64,000 nt of DNA, from the IMG/VR virus record IMGVR_UViG_3300042691_038938, one strand, 5' to 3'. The translations under genes and the position numbers were made by a program. Of this stretch, positions 52,778-64,000 are shown one piece after another. The stretch comes from a virus (Duplodnaviria; Caudoviricetes). The notes beneath the pieces were generated by a model. That model worked only from the letters and a program-made list of their open reading frames with translations. It was not told the origin of the DNA and ran no database searches. The first letter of the stretch is position 1. Each line of letters starts with the position of its first letter.

Positions 52778-54151
52778 ATGGCAAAACCCATCATAAAAAC
52801 AGTAACTGACTACTTAGACAACGATTATAAGGAATATGCAGTCTATGTTGTCGAAGAGAGAGCAATACCTTCAGTGATTGACGGGTTCAAGCCCACTCAA
52901 CGTAAGGTGATATTCATTGCCAATAAGGTATGGAGAAACGGGAGTGAGAAACCACTAAAGATATTTCAGTTAGCCGGTAGAGTCGCAGCAGACGCCTTTT
53001 ATCACCATGGAGACGGATCCTTAAACTCTGCGATCATTGGAATGGCTCAAAGATTCAAAAACTCTATGCCTGTCCTAGAAGATATTGGACAGTTCGGTTC
53101 TTTGCGATCGCCGGAGGCGGCCGCTCCTCGATATATCGCAACTAGATTACATAAGAACTTTAGACTTCTATACAAGGACTTTGAGCTTCTTGAATCTAGA
53201 CACGAGGAGGGCAATGAGATCGAACCTAAATACTTTTTACCCATAATTCCTACTGTTCTCCTAAATGGAGGTAGCGGAATCGCAGTCGGCTTCTCAACCA
53301 ACATCCTAAATAGAAACCCTTTGCACCTAATTGATGCCTGCTTAAAGTCGCTGGAAGGTAAAAAATATACTGAGCCTGCACCATGGTATCAGGAATTTAG
53401 AGGAACATGTCAGCTATTAGATACTCCTGATGCTAAGTTCTCATGGCTATTTTCAGGCAAGTATGAGGTAAGGAACACATCCACTGTCACGATCAGCGAT
53501 CTTCCTCCTTCCGTTACCTATGAGAAGTTTGATCAATATCTAATAGATCTTGAGGATTCTCGTAGGATTGTGAGCTATGAAAACAACTGTAAGTCGAACA
53601 TAAGTTATACTATAAAGTTCAGAAGAGAGGACCTAAAAGCTCTTTCTGATTCTTCCAGGCTAAACCGATTCCTAAAGATGGAGGAGAAGCAGACTGAAAA
53701 CTTCACAGTATTAGATGAGTTCGGCAAGCTTAAAGTATTTACTTCAGCCAGTGAGATCATTGAGTATTTCGTCAGCTTTAGGCTCTCTTTCTACGATAAG
53801 CGTAAGCAGTACCTAATAGACAAAGCAGAACAAGAATTATTAGTCCTTTCAAACAAGGCCAGGTTCATCAAGGATATTATTGATGGCAAACTAAAGGTGA
53901 ACAATGTTCCTCGTAAGGAGATAGTTCTGTATTTACAGACTGCTGATTTTGATGAGGTAAACGGATCGTATCAGTATCTACTTTCTCTTCCTATCTATAC
54001 TCTTACTAAGGAGACGTATGAGGAATTGATCGAAGCTGAAAAGCAAAAAATTGAGGAAATCACTAGGCTAAAAGCGATGGAACCTAAACAAATGTATAGG
54101 GAAGATTTACAAGAATTGAAAAAAGCCCTACAAAAGGAGTATAATAACTAA
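52778..54151 (+). CDS. Type IIA topoisomerase, GyrA/ParC-like subunit (gp52)
   Basis: RAIPSVIDGFKPTQRK, YHHGD, AAPRY catalytic Tyr. Confidence 0.95.
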   Translation: MAKPIIKTVTDYLDNDYKEYAVYVVEERAIPSVIDGFKPTQRKVIFIANKVWRNGSEKPLKIFQLAGRVAADAFYHHGDGSLNSAIIGMAQRFKNSMPVLEDIGQFGSLRSPEAAAPRYIATRLHKNFRLLYKDFELLESRHEEGNEIEPKYFLPIIPTVLLNGGSGIAVGFSTNILNRNPLHLIDACLKSLEGKKYTEPAPWYQEFRGTCQLLDTPDAKFSWLFSGKYEVRNTSTVTISDLPPSVTYEKFDQYLIDLEDSRRIVSYENNCKSNISYTIKFRREDLKALSDSSRLNRFLKMEEKQTENFTVLDEFGKLKVFTSASEIIEYFVSFRLSFYDKRKQYLIDKAEQELLVLSNKARFIKDIIDGKLKVNNVPRKEIVLYLQTADFDEVNGSYQYLLSLPIYTLTKETYEELIEAEKQKIEEITRLKAMEPKQMYREDLQELKKALQKEYNN

Positions 54152-54154
54152 AAT

Positions 54155-54394
54155 ATGGCAGAATTCTCAAAACAATACTGTGAAAGAAAGTTTCCTGAGA
54201 TGCCAGGAGACTTTGATATCCTGGAAATGGCTAAGGATCTTTCTAACGGCAACTATGTTCCCATGATCTGTGAGGGTTATGGATTCATCGCTATAGGTAA
54301 GGACGAGACTGGATCGATAGTGCTCGCATTTCCTGAAGATTCTAACCCGACTCCATCAGCGATTTGGAAACCTTATGAGGAAGTCGTAGTTTAA
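54155..54394 (+). CDS. Hypothetical protein
   Basis: MAEFSKQYC...ICEGYG. Confidence 0.6.
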   Translation: MAEFSKQYCERKFPEMPGDFDILEMAKDLSNGNYVPMICEGYGFIAIGKDETGSIVLAFPEDSNPTPSAIWKPYEEVVV

Positions 54395-54410
54395 TAGAAA
54401 AACTTAAACG

Positions 54411-54677
54411 ATGAAGCTTCTTACTTTACTTACTTTTTTCACAAGCATGGGTATAGCCTTATCCCAGGAACCCATCATAAATGATTATGTCGTGGCTACG
54501 CCAGACAGATCTAAAGTCTGGATAATAAACAATCCGACTGGTCAATTAATATACGACAACTGGCAACAGAATCCAGAATACAATGGAATTAGGCCAAGTG
54601 TTGCCCTAGTTGAGGACCTGGAACCATATCGTAGGAGGGTAAAAAAGATGACTAAAAATTCTAAAAAAAGCAAATAA
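54411..54677 (+). CDS. Small secreted hypothetical protein
   Basis: Signal peptide ...IALS|Q. Confidence 0.55.
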   Translation: MKLLTLLTFFTSMGIALSQEPIINDYVVATPDRSKVWIINNPTGQLIYDNWQQNPEYNGIRPSVALVEDLEPYRRRVKKMTKNSKKSK

Positions 54678-54678
54678 T

Positions 54679-55107
54679 ATGACTATTGCACAAGCATTAA
54701 AAGAAAAGAACAAAAAGGTGACTAAGTTATCTAGTATGTGGGACAGACTTCAGCGTTACAACGTGGTGAATGAGGGAGAGGCTAAACCGTATACTAGCGA
54801 AAATACTTGGGAGGAGATCAATCGATTAACTAGCGAACTGATAGAATTAAAGACTAGAATTCATGCGGCGTCTGAGCCTGTTCGAGCTAAGATCTTTATG
54901 CTTTCTGAACTAAAGAGCAAGGCACAACGACTAAAGGGTATGAACACAAACAATGGAACCTATAGAGATCGTTATTCTGAAACAACTATCTCACAAGTAG
55001 CAGAGTTTGATGTGCTTTGGAAGGACGGAATGGTTGAACTTATCGAAATGGAAATAGAAACTATTCAGGAAGAACTAGATAAGTTTAACCATACAACGAA
55101 CATCTAG
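54679..55107 (+). CDS. DIP1984-like coiled-coil protein
   Basis: MTIAQAL, NVVNEGE.KP, DRYSE, FNHTTNI parallel the recalled DIP1984-family pattern MKLAEAL..VQEGE.P..DRYS..ANWTTEL. Confidence 0.7.
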   Translation: MTIAQALKEKNKKVTKLSSMWDRLQRYNVVNEGEAKPYTSENTWEEINRLTSELIELKTRIHAASEPVRAKIFMLSELKSKAQRLKGMNTNNGTYRDRYSETTISQVAEFDVLWKDGMVELIEMEIETIQEELDKFNHTTNI

Positions 55108-55300
55108 GGCGGGCCCAAGACTAGGGAGCGGACTATTAGTATGTGAAGCAGCAAAGCTTTGTACAACTTCTAGACTTTAAAGGATGTTAGATGGTGATTG
55201 TGAGGGTCAAGATTCAAGATTCATAATGGTTCAACACTCTTCTGTCAAACATCAAAACTCTGGATTACTTTTAGACCATCACTTTTCACGGGCTTGCCCT
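55106..55300 (+). ncRNA. Putative ~195-nt structured ncRNA or 3' RNA element
   Basis: Ends pair (AGGGCGGGCCC 55106-55116 with GGGCTTGCCCT 55290-55300); internal helices; periodic TCAA motifs; followed by a terminator. Confidence 0.6.
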
Positions 55301-55311
55301 CCTATATATAG

Positions 55312-55340
55312 AAGAAGAGGATCTTTCGATCCTCTTCTTT
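55312..55340. terminator. Bidirectional terminator
   Basis: AAGAAGAGGATC-TTTC-GATCCTCTTCTT. Confidence 0.85.
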
Positions 55341-55341
55341 G

Positions 55342-56271
55342 TTATAATATGATTTCTAAGATCTTTTCAGCGACGCTAATAAATTGATCACTAGTTAATA
55401 CTGGTTCTCCAGGCTGAGTCGAAACTAATGCATACACGATTCTGCTTCTATCTGAGATTCCTATTACTGCATGATCATCGTTATCGTTACTATCTCCTCC
55501 ATCGTCGTCTTCAAATTCGTGAGTTATGCCATCCGAACTTCCTGGAATCAAGATCAGGTGATTTATCGTAGGGTCTGTGTCCAATGGATCTTCCAAATTA
55601 GTCTTATAGAAAAGGGTCCAGCCAGGTATGACTTCTTCAATTGATCCGCCATTAACCGTGTCTTCATCTGAACCTACATTACCTGTTATCGAAAATTCTG
55701 ATACTGATGTATTGTCAGCAACCATCACAAAGAGTCCAGGATACATGTTTGTGAAGTACTTTGATCCTGGTCCAAAGTAAGAGTTTCCGTCGCTTACTAT
55801 ACCATCCATTGGAGGACTTGTGTATTCGTTCTCATCATCTTCATTATCAGCCTGAGTGTGAGTGTACGGTATGCTGGTTGCTGCTAATGGATTATCCTCG
55901 TCTATCCCACCTTCTTTAATGATATCATACAGATTAGTCAAGTTAGTGTTCAAGTAGTTTCCACCGTCGTACATATCGTCTCCTCCGTCGTTTATTCCTG
56001 GCAAAGGATCGCCAGTCTCCCCGCTCGTAGTGTAATCGTCCCAAAAAAGATAGATGTTCGGCACAAGAGCAGTGATTTCAGAATACTTAGCATTCAATTT
56101 ACTTAAAGCTAGATCTATCCACTCGCTAGTTTGGATTCTGCTGCCGCCTCCTACTCCTCCTTGAGCTTGAAGTCTCATGCGCATTGCTTGCTCATATAGA
56201 GCCTGTTGTTCAAAGAAAGATCGCAAGTCCTTTTGTTCTCTGCTCTCTTCTCCCCAATTTATAAATGACAT
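55342..56271 (-). CDS. Acidic late hypothetical protein (possible head decoration/internal protein)
   Basis: 309 aa, Asp/Gly-rich; downstream of the capsid operon. Confidence 0.55.
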   Translation of the reverse strand: MSFINWGEESREQKDLRSFFEQQALYEQAMRMRLQAQGGVGGGSRIQTSEWIDLALSKLNAKYSEITALVPNIYLFWDDYTTSGETGDPLPGINDGGDDMYDGGNYLNTNLTNLYDIIKEGGIDEDNPLAATSIPYTHTQADNEDDENEYTSPPMDGIVSDGNSYFGPGSKYFTNMYPGLFVMVADNTSVSEFSITGNVGSDEDTVNGGSIEEVIPGWTLFYKTNLEDPLDTDPTINHLILIPGSSDGITHEFEDDDGGDSNDNDDHAVIGISDRSRIVYALVSTQPGEPVLTSDQFISVAEKILEIIL

Positions 56272-56280
56272 AATAAAAGA

Positions 56281-56643
56281 TTATTTTAGTGTAAGCAAGT
56301 ATTTTAGCTTATTTACTGCAGCAAGCAGCTCATCTCTCAGGTTTAAGAGATCACTATCTCGTTGAGGATTTAACTGATTATTAAGAGACAATAGGAAATC
56401 TGTAATAGTCTCTAAGAACTCATCCTGGTTCATCTCGCCGATGTTTGATAAGATAATTTGATCATCCTTTTCTACTGCAAGACGTCCATATTTTCCCATG
56501 TATATCTCTACGAAATCATCAGTCAGAGCGCTAAATGTATCGTATGCTTCTCCATATGCTTGGTGTCGTGCGTAGGATTGGGTCTGCCAGTGTAGTACTT
56601 TAAACTGTGACTGTATGCCCAAGAACATTGATATGATTGTCAT
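56281..56643 (-). CDS. Ferritin/Dps-like four-helix protein (DUF5856-like)
   Basis: VLHWQT.SYARH.A....YD......D..VE..MGKYG; late promoter at 56659-56665. Confidence 0.75.
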   Translation of the reverse strand: MTIISMFLGIQSQFKVLHWQTQSYARHQAYGEAYDTFSALTDDFVEIYMGKYGRLAVEKDDQIILSNIGEMNQDEFLETITDFLLSLNNQLNPQRDSDLLNLRDELLAAVNKLKYLLTLK

Positions 56644-62748: not shown

Positions 62749-64000
62749 CTTAGCAATAGACTGTCTAGAAGGATATGAATTTAATGCTATTACCTCAATA
62801 CATTCATTCCTGAATACTAACAAATGGTTTGATGGTAAGATATACATAATAGTGCCCAAGCATTCTGTGATTACTTCTAGAATCTCTTCGGAAATTCTAT
62901 CAATCTATGAGAATTTTGAGATAGTCAATGCTCAAGAAGATTTGAATTTTTCAAATGAATTAAGTAAAGCCTCTTCTGACTTAACAAAGATTCAAACTAT
63001 TCTTTCAATCAAAAGCCTTTACATTAAAGAGGAACGTGTCCTATTCATTTCAAGTGGGTGTCTCATCTTCAAGGACTTGAGTAAATTACTAGGCACCAAC
63101 GAAGTAACGCTGATTAGCAATCCATCAGCAGAAATAGACTTTTCTGTATTCTATCGAAATAAGATAGCTAATTCTTCTCTATCAATCTCTCAATTACTCA
63201 ATCAGGTTTTTACTGATCGTAATTCAATACTTTCCCTGTTTCAAACTAACCAAAAGATCACAACTGTTTTGGGAGAAACTTCTTCTAGTTTTAATGATAG
63301 GGTCTTTCTAAAGAAGAAATCAGTCTTAAATCTTCTTAATTTCATTAAATATGACACATTAAGAGGAGAATCTAGGAACTATTCTAAGATAAACTATATT
63401 TGGATTCAGCATCAAAAGGTAGTCAAAAACATCCTAAAAAGACCGGCATCCTTCAAAGGAAAGAGGACTTTAAATAAAAGTCTCTCCCCTAAACTTGATG
63501 GACTACTTAATTCTCCACAGGCTCAGCCAACTCAAAATAAGAACATCCAGTCGGCCACAAAGGAAGTAAATCTAAATAAGGCGAGAAGTCTCTTAAGAGT
63601 CAGGGAAACGGATAAGAGATACTTACTTAATGAGAAGAAAAAAGCAGAGAGTCTTTCTCAATATCATGAAACTGTCTCACAATATTCTGAGACTCCTCCT
63701 CGACACGATTATGCTACTGCTTGTGTGATAGCATTTTTAGATCGGCATGAGATGGTTGAACTTAATGTCAAGCTTCTAAGCCAACAAAGTTTGGTACCTG
63801 CGATAGTCCTAGTTGCTTCAAATCCAACAGATGCTGCATTTGCTAATGGGTTAATTGAAAGATATCCTAACGTGTTCGTCACCTACTATCAAAATTATCC
63901 AATAGGCGGAAAGTGGAGAGCCGGGGTAAAGTATGCACAGCGTCTGAACGTTAGAGGACTGATGATACTCGGATCAGATGATCTACTATCACTAGATTAC
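62738..64000 (+). CDS. Multidomain glycosyltransferase-like protein (partial; GT2-like C-terminal domain)
   Basis: Not in ORF track. ATG at 62738, frame open to the window end by manual translation; CVIAFLDR...KWRAG...MILGSDD. Confidence 0.6.
   Translation, partial: MKINLAIDCLEGYEFNAITSIHSFLNTNKWFDGKIYIIVPKHSVITSRISSEILSIYENFEIVNAQEDLNFSNELSKASSDLTKIQTILSIKSLYIKEERVLFISSGCLIFKDLSKLLGTNEVTLISNPSAEIDFSVFYRNKIANSSLSISQLLNQVFTDRNSILSLFQTNQKITTVLGETSSSFNDRVFLKKKSVLNLLNFIKYDTLRGESRNYSKINYIWIQHQKVVKNILKRPASFKGKRTLNKSLSPKLDGLLNSPQAQPTQNKNIQSATKEVNLNKARSLLRVRETDKRYLLNEKKKAESLSQYHETVSQYSETPPRHDYATACVIAFLDRHEMVELNVKLLSQQSLVPAIVLVASNPTDAAFANGLIERYPNVFVTYYQNYPIGGKWRAGVKYAQRLNVRGLMILGSDDLLSLDY

Follow-up and report, generated by a model that had tools for sequence, protein, structure and literature searches.

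A conserved structured RNA travels with a DIP1984-like gene of huge phages and shows head-to-tail joints in river metatranscriptome contigs

We analyzed a 64,000-nucleotide stretch of viral DNA (hereafter the window) from the IMG/VR record IMGVR_UViG_3300042691_038938 (Duplodnaviria; Caudoviricetes), in which a gene for a 142-residue protein of the DIP1984/DUF6847 fold, recognized by profile and fold matches (positions 54679-55107, + strand), is directly followed by an RNA element. The roughly 200 nucleotides behind the gene are a real, conserved structured RNA that travels with it, and in RNA libraries the element was found as a head-to-tail unit of 201-204 nucleotides (55103-55306, + strand), delimited by contig joints and by a covariance model. 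Across about 100 loci its conservation, covariation and motif periodicity far exceeded the controls. The explanation towards which we lean, with modest confidence, is that the locus represents one copy of a widespread two-part module whose RNA would be excised, ligated into a circle and bound by an oligomer of the protein; it explains linkage, structure and joints together better than any of the rivals weighed below. The source of the window is a huge uncultured phage: the window is part of a 78-kb record with a CheckV completeness of 26%, which puts the phage at about 300 kb.

In the window, the element is closed by helix P1, whose 5' arm AGGGCGGGCCC (55106-55116) overlaps the TAG stop codon and pairs with the 3' arm GGGCUUGCCCU (55290-55300) through 11 base pairs, two of them G-U, as part of the minimum-energy fold. 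Inside P1 and on the same (+) strand lie hairpin P4 (AAGC-AGCAAA-GCUU, 55146-55159), a conserved UACAAC (55162-55167), a run with GAU at 55183, 55190 and 55196 and then GAG (55183-55204), and a G-poor array of the UCAA type ending in UCAAAACUC (55207-55260). TCA(A/T) recurs at 55207, 55214, 55221, 55231, 55245 and 55252, and Tandem Repeats Finder reported TCAAGAT in 2.4 copies at 55207-55223 as the sole tandem array, with a unit of 7 nucleotides. A GAUGUU/AACAUC pairing is predicted inside the element, and the UCAA run is predicted to be more accessible than the GAU run. The original prediction, made from the letters of the window, had described a closed RNA with these motifs, and all its coordinates and listed features are present in the sequence. 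Two of its inner pairings fared less well: the letters of a GTGAA (55143)/TTCAC (55285) helix are there, with the pairing outside the predicted fold and unsupported in relatives, and a proposed GATGGT/ACCATC switch likewise found no support in relatives. It had also set P1 against an AT-rich genome; the local G+C content is about 40%, not strongly AT-rich, so that P1 is less conspicuous than was held.

A protein search returned 159 homologues, many of them on contigs of 100-320 kb, and 83 phage loci were fetched. By eye, an element of 165-215 nucleotides free of open reading frames (ORFs) stands directly after the stop codon in almost all of these loci. The order of its parts is constant, with closing helices, a small hairpin, UAC(A), the consensus GAU..GAU..UGAU, a G-poor run of the type UCAAAAUUCAAGAU..CAAGAG.UCAAAA...UCAAAACUC and finally the 3' strands of the closing helices, after which a terminator often follows. 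In three loci (L033, L035 and L036) a small cysteine-rich ORF (CxxC...CxxC, zinc-ribbon-like, ~1938-2126) is placed between gene and RNA, and the element therefore starts about 190 nucleotides past the stop codon.

A first covariance model built from eight sequences matched 55 sources, and a second model, R2, was rebuilt from those matches. Calibration was rough, and several loci were near-duplicates, identical rows being counted once. In 82 of 84 phage sources R2 matched immediately after the gene, always on the strand of the gene (+), and elsewhere gave only three weak matches in 351 kb. In the window the match covers 55118-55305 (+ strand). R2 also matched in 27 of 35 further loci from metagenome-assembled genomes (MAGs) and close relatives, and four genomes (G000, G001, G002 and G004) contained exactly one match each, beside the gene; the element of G003 belongs to a type that R2 misses. 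Conservation of the closed RNA behind homologues, as originally foreseen, was thus borne out. Weak R2 matches (E 0.1-0.6) on both strands of the window at 62912-63024 are probably due to chance in an A/T-rich palindrome.

The closing helices comprise 18 pairs. In the model-fitted alignment, 87% of their cells were paired, compared with 33-49% after sliding by 1-3 columns; double-changed cells numbered 288 as against 85 ± 9 in shuffles, and compensatory changes occurred in all 18 pairs. Since this alignment had been fitted to the structure, an alignment-free cognate test was added, in which the stop-codon region (48 nucleotides) of each of 30 diverse loci was duplexed against the 3' regions of all loci. 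The cognate 3' arm reached a mean rank of 1.8 (15.5 expected) and was the best partner in 20 of the 30 loci, and none of 20,000 permutations matched the observed sum. Energies of the closing duplex compared with mononucleotide shuffles gave a weak signal (median z of -1.9), and the cognate test was used instead. Covariation of P1 is visible in close relatives, for instance AAGGCU-U-GCCC with GGGCAGCCUU, and the P4 stem shows compensatory versions such as AGAC/GUCU, CAGA/UCUG and UACC/GGUA. Since its inner regions misalign, a broad MAFFT alignment gave RNAalifold no more than P1 and a portion of P2. The periodicity of the motif also proved to be a trait of the family and not of the window only: among 58 distinct elements, UCAA was spaced by 7 nucleotides 51 times and by 8 nucleotides 32 times, that is, 83 spacings of 7-8 nucleotides where shuffles gave about 0-1, and GAU/GAT spacings of 6-8 nucleotides were likewise enriched over shuffles. 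A tRNA-like 3' end was considered as well; the GCCCACCA ending is confined to one clade and is no family trait.

Comparison with Rfam matched the RNA to no family. Release 15 gave no match in the whole window and nothing relevant at E <=10 in 54900-55500; in 11 diverse members nothing was found on the element at E <=1, and the ribozyme families (hammerhead, twister, HDV, pistol and hatchet) gave no match at E <=10 around the element ends. In the literature searched the RNA is undescribed. A different account of such an RNA is that it works without the protein and, as a stable decoy or sponge, titrates a host RNA-binding factor (Hfq, ProQ, CsrA, Rho, RNase E or Ro60), while the gene beside it is merely co-expressed. 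The repeat array, G-poor, C/A-rich and partly unpaired, would suit this role, and a stable circular RNA would agree with the form seen in RNA libraries. We consider a sponge rather unlikely, given the near-absolute linkage to one protein family across phages (26-97% protein identity) and bacterial MAGs at one copy per genome, and given a motif that fits no known site, such as those of CsrA, TRAP and Rho. CsrA binds GGA, TRAP binds GAG/UAG at a spacing of 5-6 nucleotides, and Rho sites lie about 12 nucleotides apart.

Presence of the element in RNA was analyzed in 20 metatranscriptome runs from 17 studies, mostly riverine, which contained 69-94% of the sampled words of 55103-55306. Contigs of four river metatranscriptome runs were placed on positions 54400-55700, and each run yielded one contig of 200-231 nucleotides on the element, at least 99% identical to the window. 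Three of these four contigs were circularly permuted. The contig of run X22 reads 55239-55305 and then 55102-55265, with a joint 55305>55102 and a step back of 204 nucleotides; that of X21 reads 55143-55303 and then 55103-55161 (joint 55303>55103, step back of 201 nucleotides); and that of X19 extends up to 55311 and continues with fifteen letters equal to 55108-55122. Given the repetition of AU and UAG at the two ends, the joints of X22 and X19 would correspond to the same 204-nucleotide circle. The sole difference between them is C or A at 55104, inside the joined unit, where the A of X19 changes the last codon from ATC to ATA, a synonymous change (Ile). The X21 unit is 3 nucleotides shorter on the 3' side than the other two. 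The joint is located 3 nucleotides before and 3-6 nucleotides after P1, a position that fits a processed RNA, since ends held by P1 would lie there. No match to the joint of the window was found in metagenome contigs of the Joint Genome Institute (JGI). The joint pattern of the GGGCGA/CCCACCA clade of relatives, sought in JGI contigs too, matched twice by chance, once at a tRNA 3' end and once within a coding region. Neither the ORF nor the convergent gene was covered by any contig of the four RNA runs, which we did not use as evidence on expression.

One alternative is an element acting only in cis. It would be a 3' untranslated region serving as mRNA stabilizer, termination or processing signal or autoregulatory operator, and the joints would be artefacts of library preparation or assembly. 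It is true that the element begins at the stop codon and finishes at a hairpin, that a promoter of its own was not found for the RNA, and that the RNA evidence consists of contigs. We nevertheless judge this explanation unlikely. Permuted contigs were obtained from three of four independent runs, joined exactly at the foot of P1, and in the window DNA the element is single-copy and no long direct repeat (31 nucleotides), able to mislead an assembler into such joins, is present. Moreover, in L045, L074 and L075 the element lies among tRNA genes, like a stable RNA gene, and a 200-nucleotide structure of several helices with a motif array far exceeds the needs of a terminator. The joints could also be genomic, if river strains carried a tandem duplication of the 204-bp unit, as contigs cannot separate DNA-encoded repeats from RNA circles. 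This we regard as highly improbable: among about 120 DNA loci not one has two adjacent copies, the contigs share 99-100% identity with the single-copy window, and the joint falls where processed ends would lie. The simplest reading of the joined RNA is a covalently closed circle of 201-204 nucleotides, which we prefer to a multimer.

The protein itself matches the DIP1984 family remotely. The hidden Markov model (HMM) of NCBIfam NF038048 was covered end to end with an E value of 1.2e-8 and 35.2 bits (cut-off 70), and Pfam PF20935 (DUF6847) gave 26.4 bits, short of its curated threshold of 27; a precomputed PF20935 match is present in many homologues. By these scores the 142-residue protein appears to belong to a remote DIP1984 subfamily, just below the curated cut-offs. 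A search of the PDB with the single sequence found no match, and a profile search found 3KDQ only at E 0.65. A model computed with AlphaFold2 from 30 homologues (predicted local distance difference test, pLDDT, of 89) has four helices and a beta-hairpin. Foldseek ranked 3kdq_A/C best, with a template modeling (TM) score of 0.69-0.76 and a probability of 1.00, the next match having a TM score <0.4, and VIA-align placed 3KDQ at Z 13.5 with a root-mean-square deviation of 3.3 over 140 of 142 residues, the runner-up reaching Z 9.2 over 65 residues. On the predicted model, 3KDQ is thus the sole convincing structural neighbor, and the DIP1984 assignment of the original prediction is upheld by a near-cut-off profile match together with this fold. 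3KDQ is the crystal structure of DIP1984 from Corynebacterium diphtheriae, solved in 2009, and its family is often mislabelled 'septicolysin'. The predicted fold is alike over the whole length, with about 19% identity and HMM scores under the curated cut-offs. This match names the protein and explains nothing, because no member has a known function, and the literature search found nothing on the function of the DIP1984 family. A HEPN-like reading of a conserved R-x-H in the protein received no support from the fold search.

We also modeled the protein in four copies. The model scored 0.66, compared with 0.02 for the best of three controls, a mark reached by 20 of 30 proteins solved as one-chain pairs and by 1 of 23 solved as single chains; contacts agreed by at least 97% between runs, and the pLDDT of the partners was at least 87. 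Self-association of the DIP1984-like protein is thus supported by modeling, not shown, and the four-copy result may reflect memory, because 3KDQ itself was solved with four chains. The predicted fold bears on yet another explanation, a type III toxin-antitoxin system such as ToxIN, CptIN or TenpIN, in which the protein would be a toxin checked by the repetitive RNA. The likeness consists in a small protein gene adjoining a repetitive RNA, on phages and other mobile DNA. It ends there: the units are of 7 nucleotides within a single closed scaffold and not tandem repeats of about 36 nucleotides, the RNA is downstream and not upstream, an order opposite to that of ToxIN, and the predicted fold is that of 3KDQ and not of ToxN/AbiQ, the absence of a ToxN-like endoribonuclease fold being judged from the fold ranking alone. 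Such a system is extremely improbable here. The RNA-antitoxin and template roles once suggested for this element were not supported: ToxI-like repeats, an endless frame and a reverse transcriptase are all missing. Read as a circle, the unit has stops in every frame, one per turn in the best of them.

In a scan of prokaryote genomes, the gene turned up on contigs of freshwater Bacteroidota MAGs (42-49% identity), probably phage DNA drawn into the bins, and on Victivallales/Lentisphaeria MAGs from rumen and gut (about 30% identity). The module also occurs on phage-like contigs binned into freshwater Crocinitomicaceae, Flavobacteriales and Cryomorphaceae MAGs (L092-L105), which is a faint indication of the clade that hosts this phage group. 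Among GenBank phages, a distant blastn search gave no match and tblastn found only the uncultured huge phages LR756500 and LR756511, so that no cultured carrier was identified; plasmids searched by tblastn with the Lentisphaeria protein gave no match. Two canonical DIP1984 genes above the cut-off, from the same phylum, are each followed by ORF-free, G+C-rich sequence. Behind that of L124 (186 bits), about 350 nucleotides of such sequence (L124:1100-1500, - strand) contain GGUCCUUUGAG, similar to the GGUCCUUUAGUCAAG found in one phage clade, but the region goes unrecognized by the phage model.

In three phage loci (L045, L074 and L075) gene and RNA are embedded in a tRNA array, and in L043 and L049 a tRNA-Ser gene lies within about 1 kb downstream, in L049 together with a transfer-messenger RNA (tmRNA). 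Altogether, a tRNA or tmRNA gene was found at <=1.5 kb in 7 of 99 distinct loci. In several huge phages a dense tRNA array is interrupted by a single protein-coding insert, the DIP1984-like gene with its RNA (L045:1-3426, L074:1342-3273, L075:1177-2596 and L049:2411-3249); L045 has 17 tRNAs, and the tmRNA tag of L049 is GVNNYALAA. In six Lentisphaeria loci RtcB begins right after the RNA. L121 has the order Ro60-vWA gene, DIP1984-like gene, RNA and RtcB (362 bits), and this is the only locus in which a Ro60-vWA gene adjoins the module. TROVE/Ro60 was found in one of five carrier phage records and in none of the three complete ones, far from the locus. In G004, the 207-kb phage of L022, a 583-residue ORF matches TROVE/Ro60 with 33.5 bits (G004:C1:186749-186970) at about 125 kb from the locus. 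The three complete carrier genomes encode ATP-dependent RNA ligases of the Rnl1 or Rnl2 type.

The gene order of L121, and the pairing of 5' and 3' ends that Y RNAs also have, would agree with the element being a divergent Y RNA of Ro60 (Rsr), with the DIP1984-like protein as an accessory of a Ro60/RtcB operon. We hold this to be very unlikely. No Rfam Y RNA was matched in the window or in the 11 diverse members, not even at E 1-10, TROVE/Ro60 is confined to one of the five carrier phage records, and no tRNA-like domain was detected, ARAGORN finding nothing in the window.

Taken as a two-part module, the locus would comprise a small self-associating DIP1984-fold protein and its cognate RNA of about 200 nucleotides directly 3' of the gene. 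The RNA would be transcribed with the gene and released from the 3' end of its transcript by cuts at two places, one on the 5' side two bases ahead of the stop codon and one on the 3' side 3-6 bases past P1. P1 would then hold and align both ends for ligation into the covalently closed product of 201-204 nucleotides, in which it would be capped by a loop of about 9 nucleotides. The geometry of P1 with this loop would be akin to that of a nicked anticodon loop, on which RtcB and T4-type RNA ligases naturally act, and the ligase may be host RtcB or a phage ATP-dependent RNA ligase. The UCAA/GAU array, partly single-stranded and spaced by 7-8 nucleotides, would most likely be bound by an oligomer of the protein, and the particle would belong to stable-RNA or RNA-repair biology and serve RNA repair or tRNA surveillance in the world of RtcB, Ro60 and tRNA, a role suggested by the neighbors in bacteria and by the phage tRNA clusters. 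Our confidence falls along these steps, from release of the RNA over P1-aligned ligation and protein binding of the array to the repair role. In the window, the 5' cut would also strip the stop codon and leave a non-stop mRNA, with possible feedback on synthesis of the protein, an effect that would be limited to those clades in which P1 and the stop codon overlap.

Several points weigh against this mechanism. The contig of the fourth run, X20, is linear (55116-55315). The joints come from assembled contigs of depth 3-8 and differ between runs (201 as opposed to 204 nucleotides), the contigs give neither the strand nor the ends of the RNA, and multimers or a tandem DNA duplication would yield the same contigs, because these show neither topology nor DNA state. 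The folding energy beats shuffles modestly, with a z of -2.07 for the linear and -1.74 for the circular form (the linear value, taken without the hairpin at 55312-55339, becomes -4.3 with it). A covariation scan of the conserved core detected no further supported pairs, and the fold of the core is thus not established; the rod-like pairing of the GAU run with distal UCAA units in the clade of the window stays a prediction, because the core is too invariant. Neither the 26%-complete record of the window nor any of the four other carrier phage records searched, of which three are complete, contains RtcB. Behind L124 and L125, which are bona fide bacterial DIP1984 genes above the cut-off, R2 found no match, nor did it at one weak bacterial DIP1984 locus, and because R2 misses L124 and L125, the RNA is not established as homologous throughout the protein family. 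Finally, contact between protein and RNA is inferred only.

The neighborhood of the module in the window agrees with a common transcript. Two small ORFs of 79 (phrog_2210) and 88 residues (54155-54677, + strand) precede the DIP1984-like gene, co-oriented and tightly spaced with it, and the same pair precedes the gene in the close relatives L088, L089 and L090. In front of this run, a consensus scan found a promoter-like site, TTGAAA-18-TATAAT (54116-54145, + strand), with 11 of 12 matches, as a consensus match only; it is a candidate start for a transcription unit formed by both small ORFs, the DIP1984-like gene and the RNA. The scan found nothing comparable directly upstream of the RNA. Since a promoter-like site precedes the three-gene run and none precedes the RNA, gene and RNA are probably co-transcribed. 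Genes for both subunits of topoisomerase II are located upstream of the DIP1984-like gene. On the other side, outside the joined unit, a perfect 12-bp hairpin (55312-55339, + strand; arms 55312-55323 and 55328-55339) is common to the RNA side and to a convergent gene of 309 residues (55342-56271, - strand), and it is likely a bidirectional terminator. A strong terminator had been expected here: the hairpin is indeed perfect, but a consensus terminator scan left it unflagged, because its tail has only 4 T in 8. Beyond the convergent gene lies a 120-residue DUF5856 gene (phrog_858, 'starvation-inducible transcriptional regulator'; 56281-56643, - strand), which is kept opposite the module in the close relatives L089, L090 and L091 and in the contig of P0003.

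If the proposed module is real, it would give a first functional handle on the DIP1984 family, which has had a structure since 2009 but no known function, and whose members on clinical plasmids still carry the wrong label of a toxin ('septicolysin'). It would also add an RNA family missing from Rfam and provide, in phages and bacteria alike, a natural case of a DNA-encoded circular non-coding RNA with ties to the repair machinery of RtcB and Ro60. Physiological substrates of RtcB and Ro60 are still poorly known. A compact natural scaffold for RNA circles in bacteria could, in addition, become a tool. More tentatively, and with rather less confidence than in the module itself, we suggest that DIP1984-fold proteins and their RNAs may form an unrecognized, very widespread class of ribonucleoproteins of bacteria and huge phages, in which a DNA-encoded circle closed by RtcB or Rnl would act in repair or surveillance during phage-host conflict.

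Several known systems resemble the module in part. Viroid-like circular RNAs and Obelisks (PMC9911046 and PMC11949080, as cited in PMC12571901) are, like the proposed circle, small circular RNAs with a mostly rod-like predicted fold, seen as permuted metatranscriptome contigs; the element differs in being encoded in phage DNA, without ribozyme or replicase, and tied to a neighboring protein gene. Another comparison concerns the multi-site RNAs read by protein oligomers, namely TRAP with GAG/UAG repeats and CsrA with CsrB/CsrC. With these the element has in common a short, regularly spaced and partly single-stranded motif, and the module protein is predicted to self-associate; motif, spacing and fold differ, the array sits in a closed scaffold encoded in cis, and binding is putative.

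RtcB-type circles are known from archaea, where they are released at bulge-helix-bulge sites, and from engineered 'Tornado' constructs flanked by ribozymes. In both cases, as proposed for the element, a helix brings the two ends together and the product is small and covalently closed, and RtcB adjoins the element in the six bacterial loci. In contrast to these circles, neither a bulge-helix-bulge nor a flanking self-cleaving ribozyme (Rfam) was detected at the element, and the carrier phages encode ligases of the Rnl type and not RtcB. Bacterial Y RNAs (Yrn1, YrlA/YrlB) lie near rsr, the Ro60 gene, in more than 250 bacteria and also in phages (PMC4201824). Like the module, they consist of a structured non-coding RNA with paired ends beside its protein partner on the same strand, with links to RtcB and tRNA biology, and in L121 the element even stands between a Ro60-like gene and rtcB. 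The partner in the module is, however, a small helical protein of the predicted DIP1984 fold and not a TROVE ring, the element carries an array of motifs at 7-8 nucleotides and is apparently circular, without Rfam Y match or tRNA-like domain, and most carrier phages lack Ro60. Because RNA motifs, protein fold and Ro60 presence depart from what defines those classes, we assign the module neither to the Y RNAs nor to the RtcB-made circles; gene and RNA together are new as a system, unmatched in Rfam and undescribed in the literature searched. By analogy, the module would work most like a Y RNA with its Ro60 protein, and it would also resemble the circles made by RtcB.

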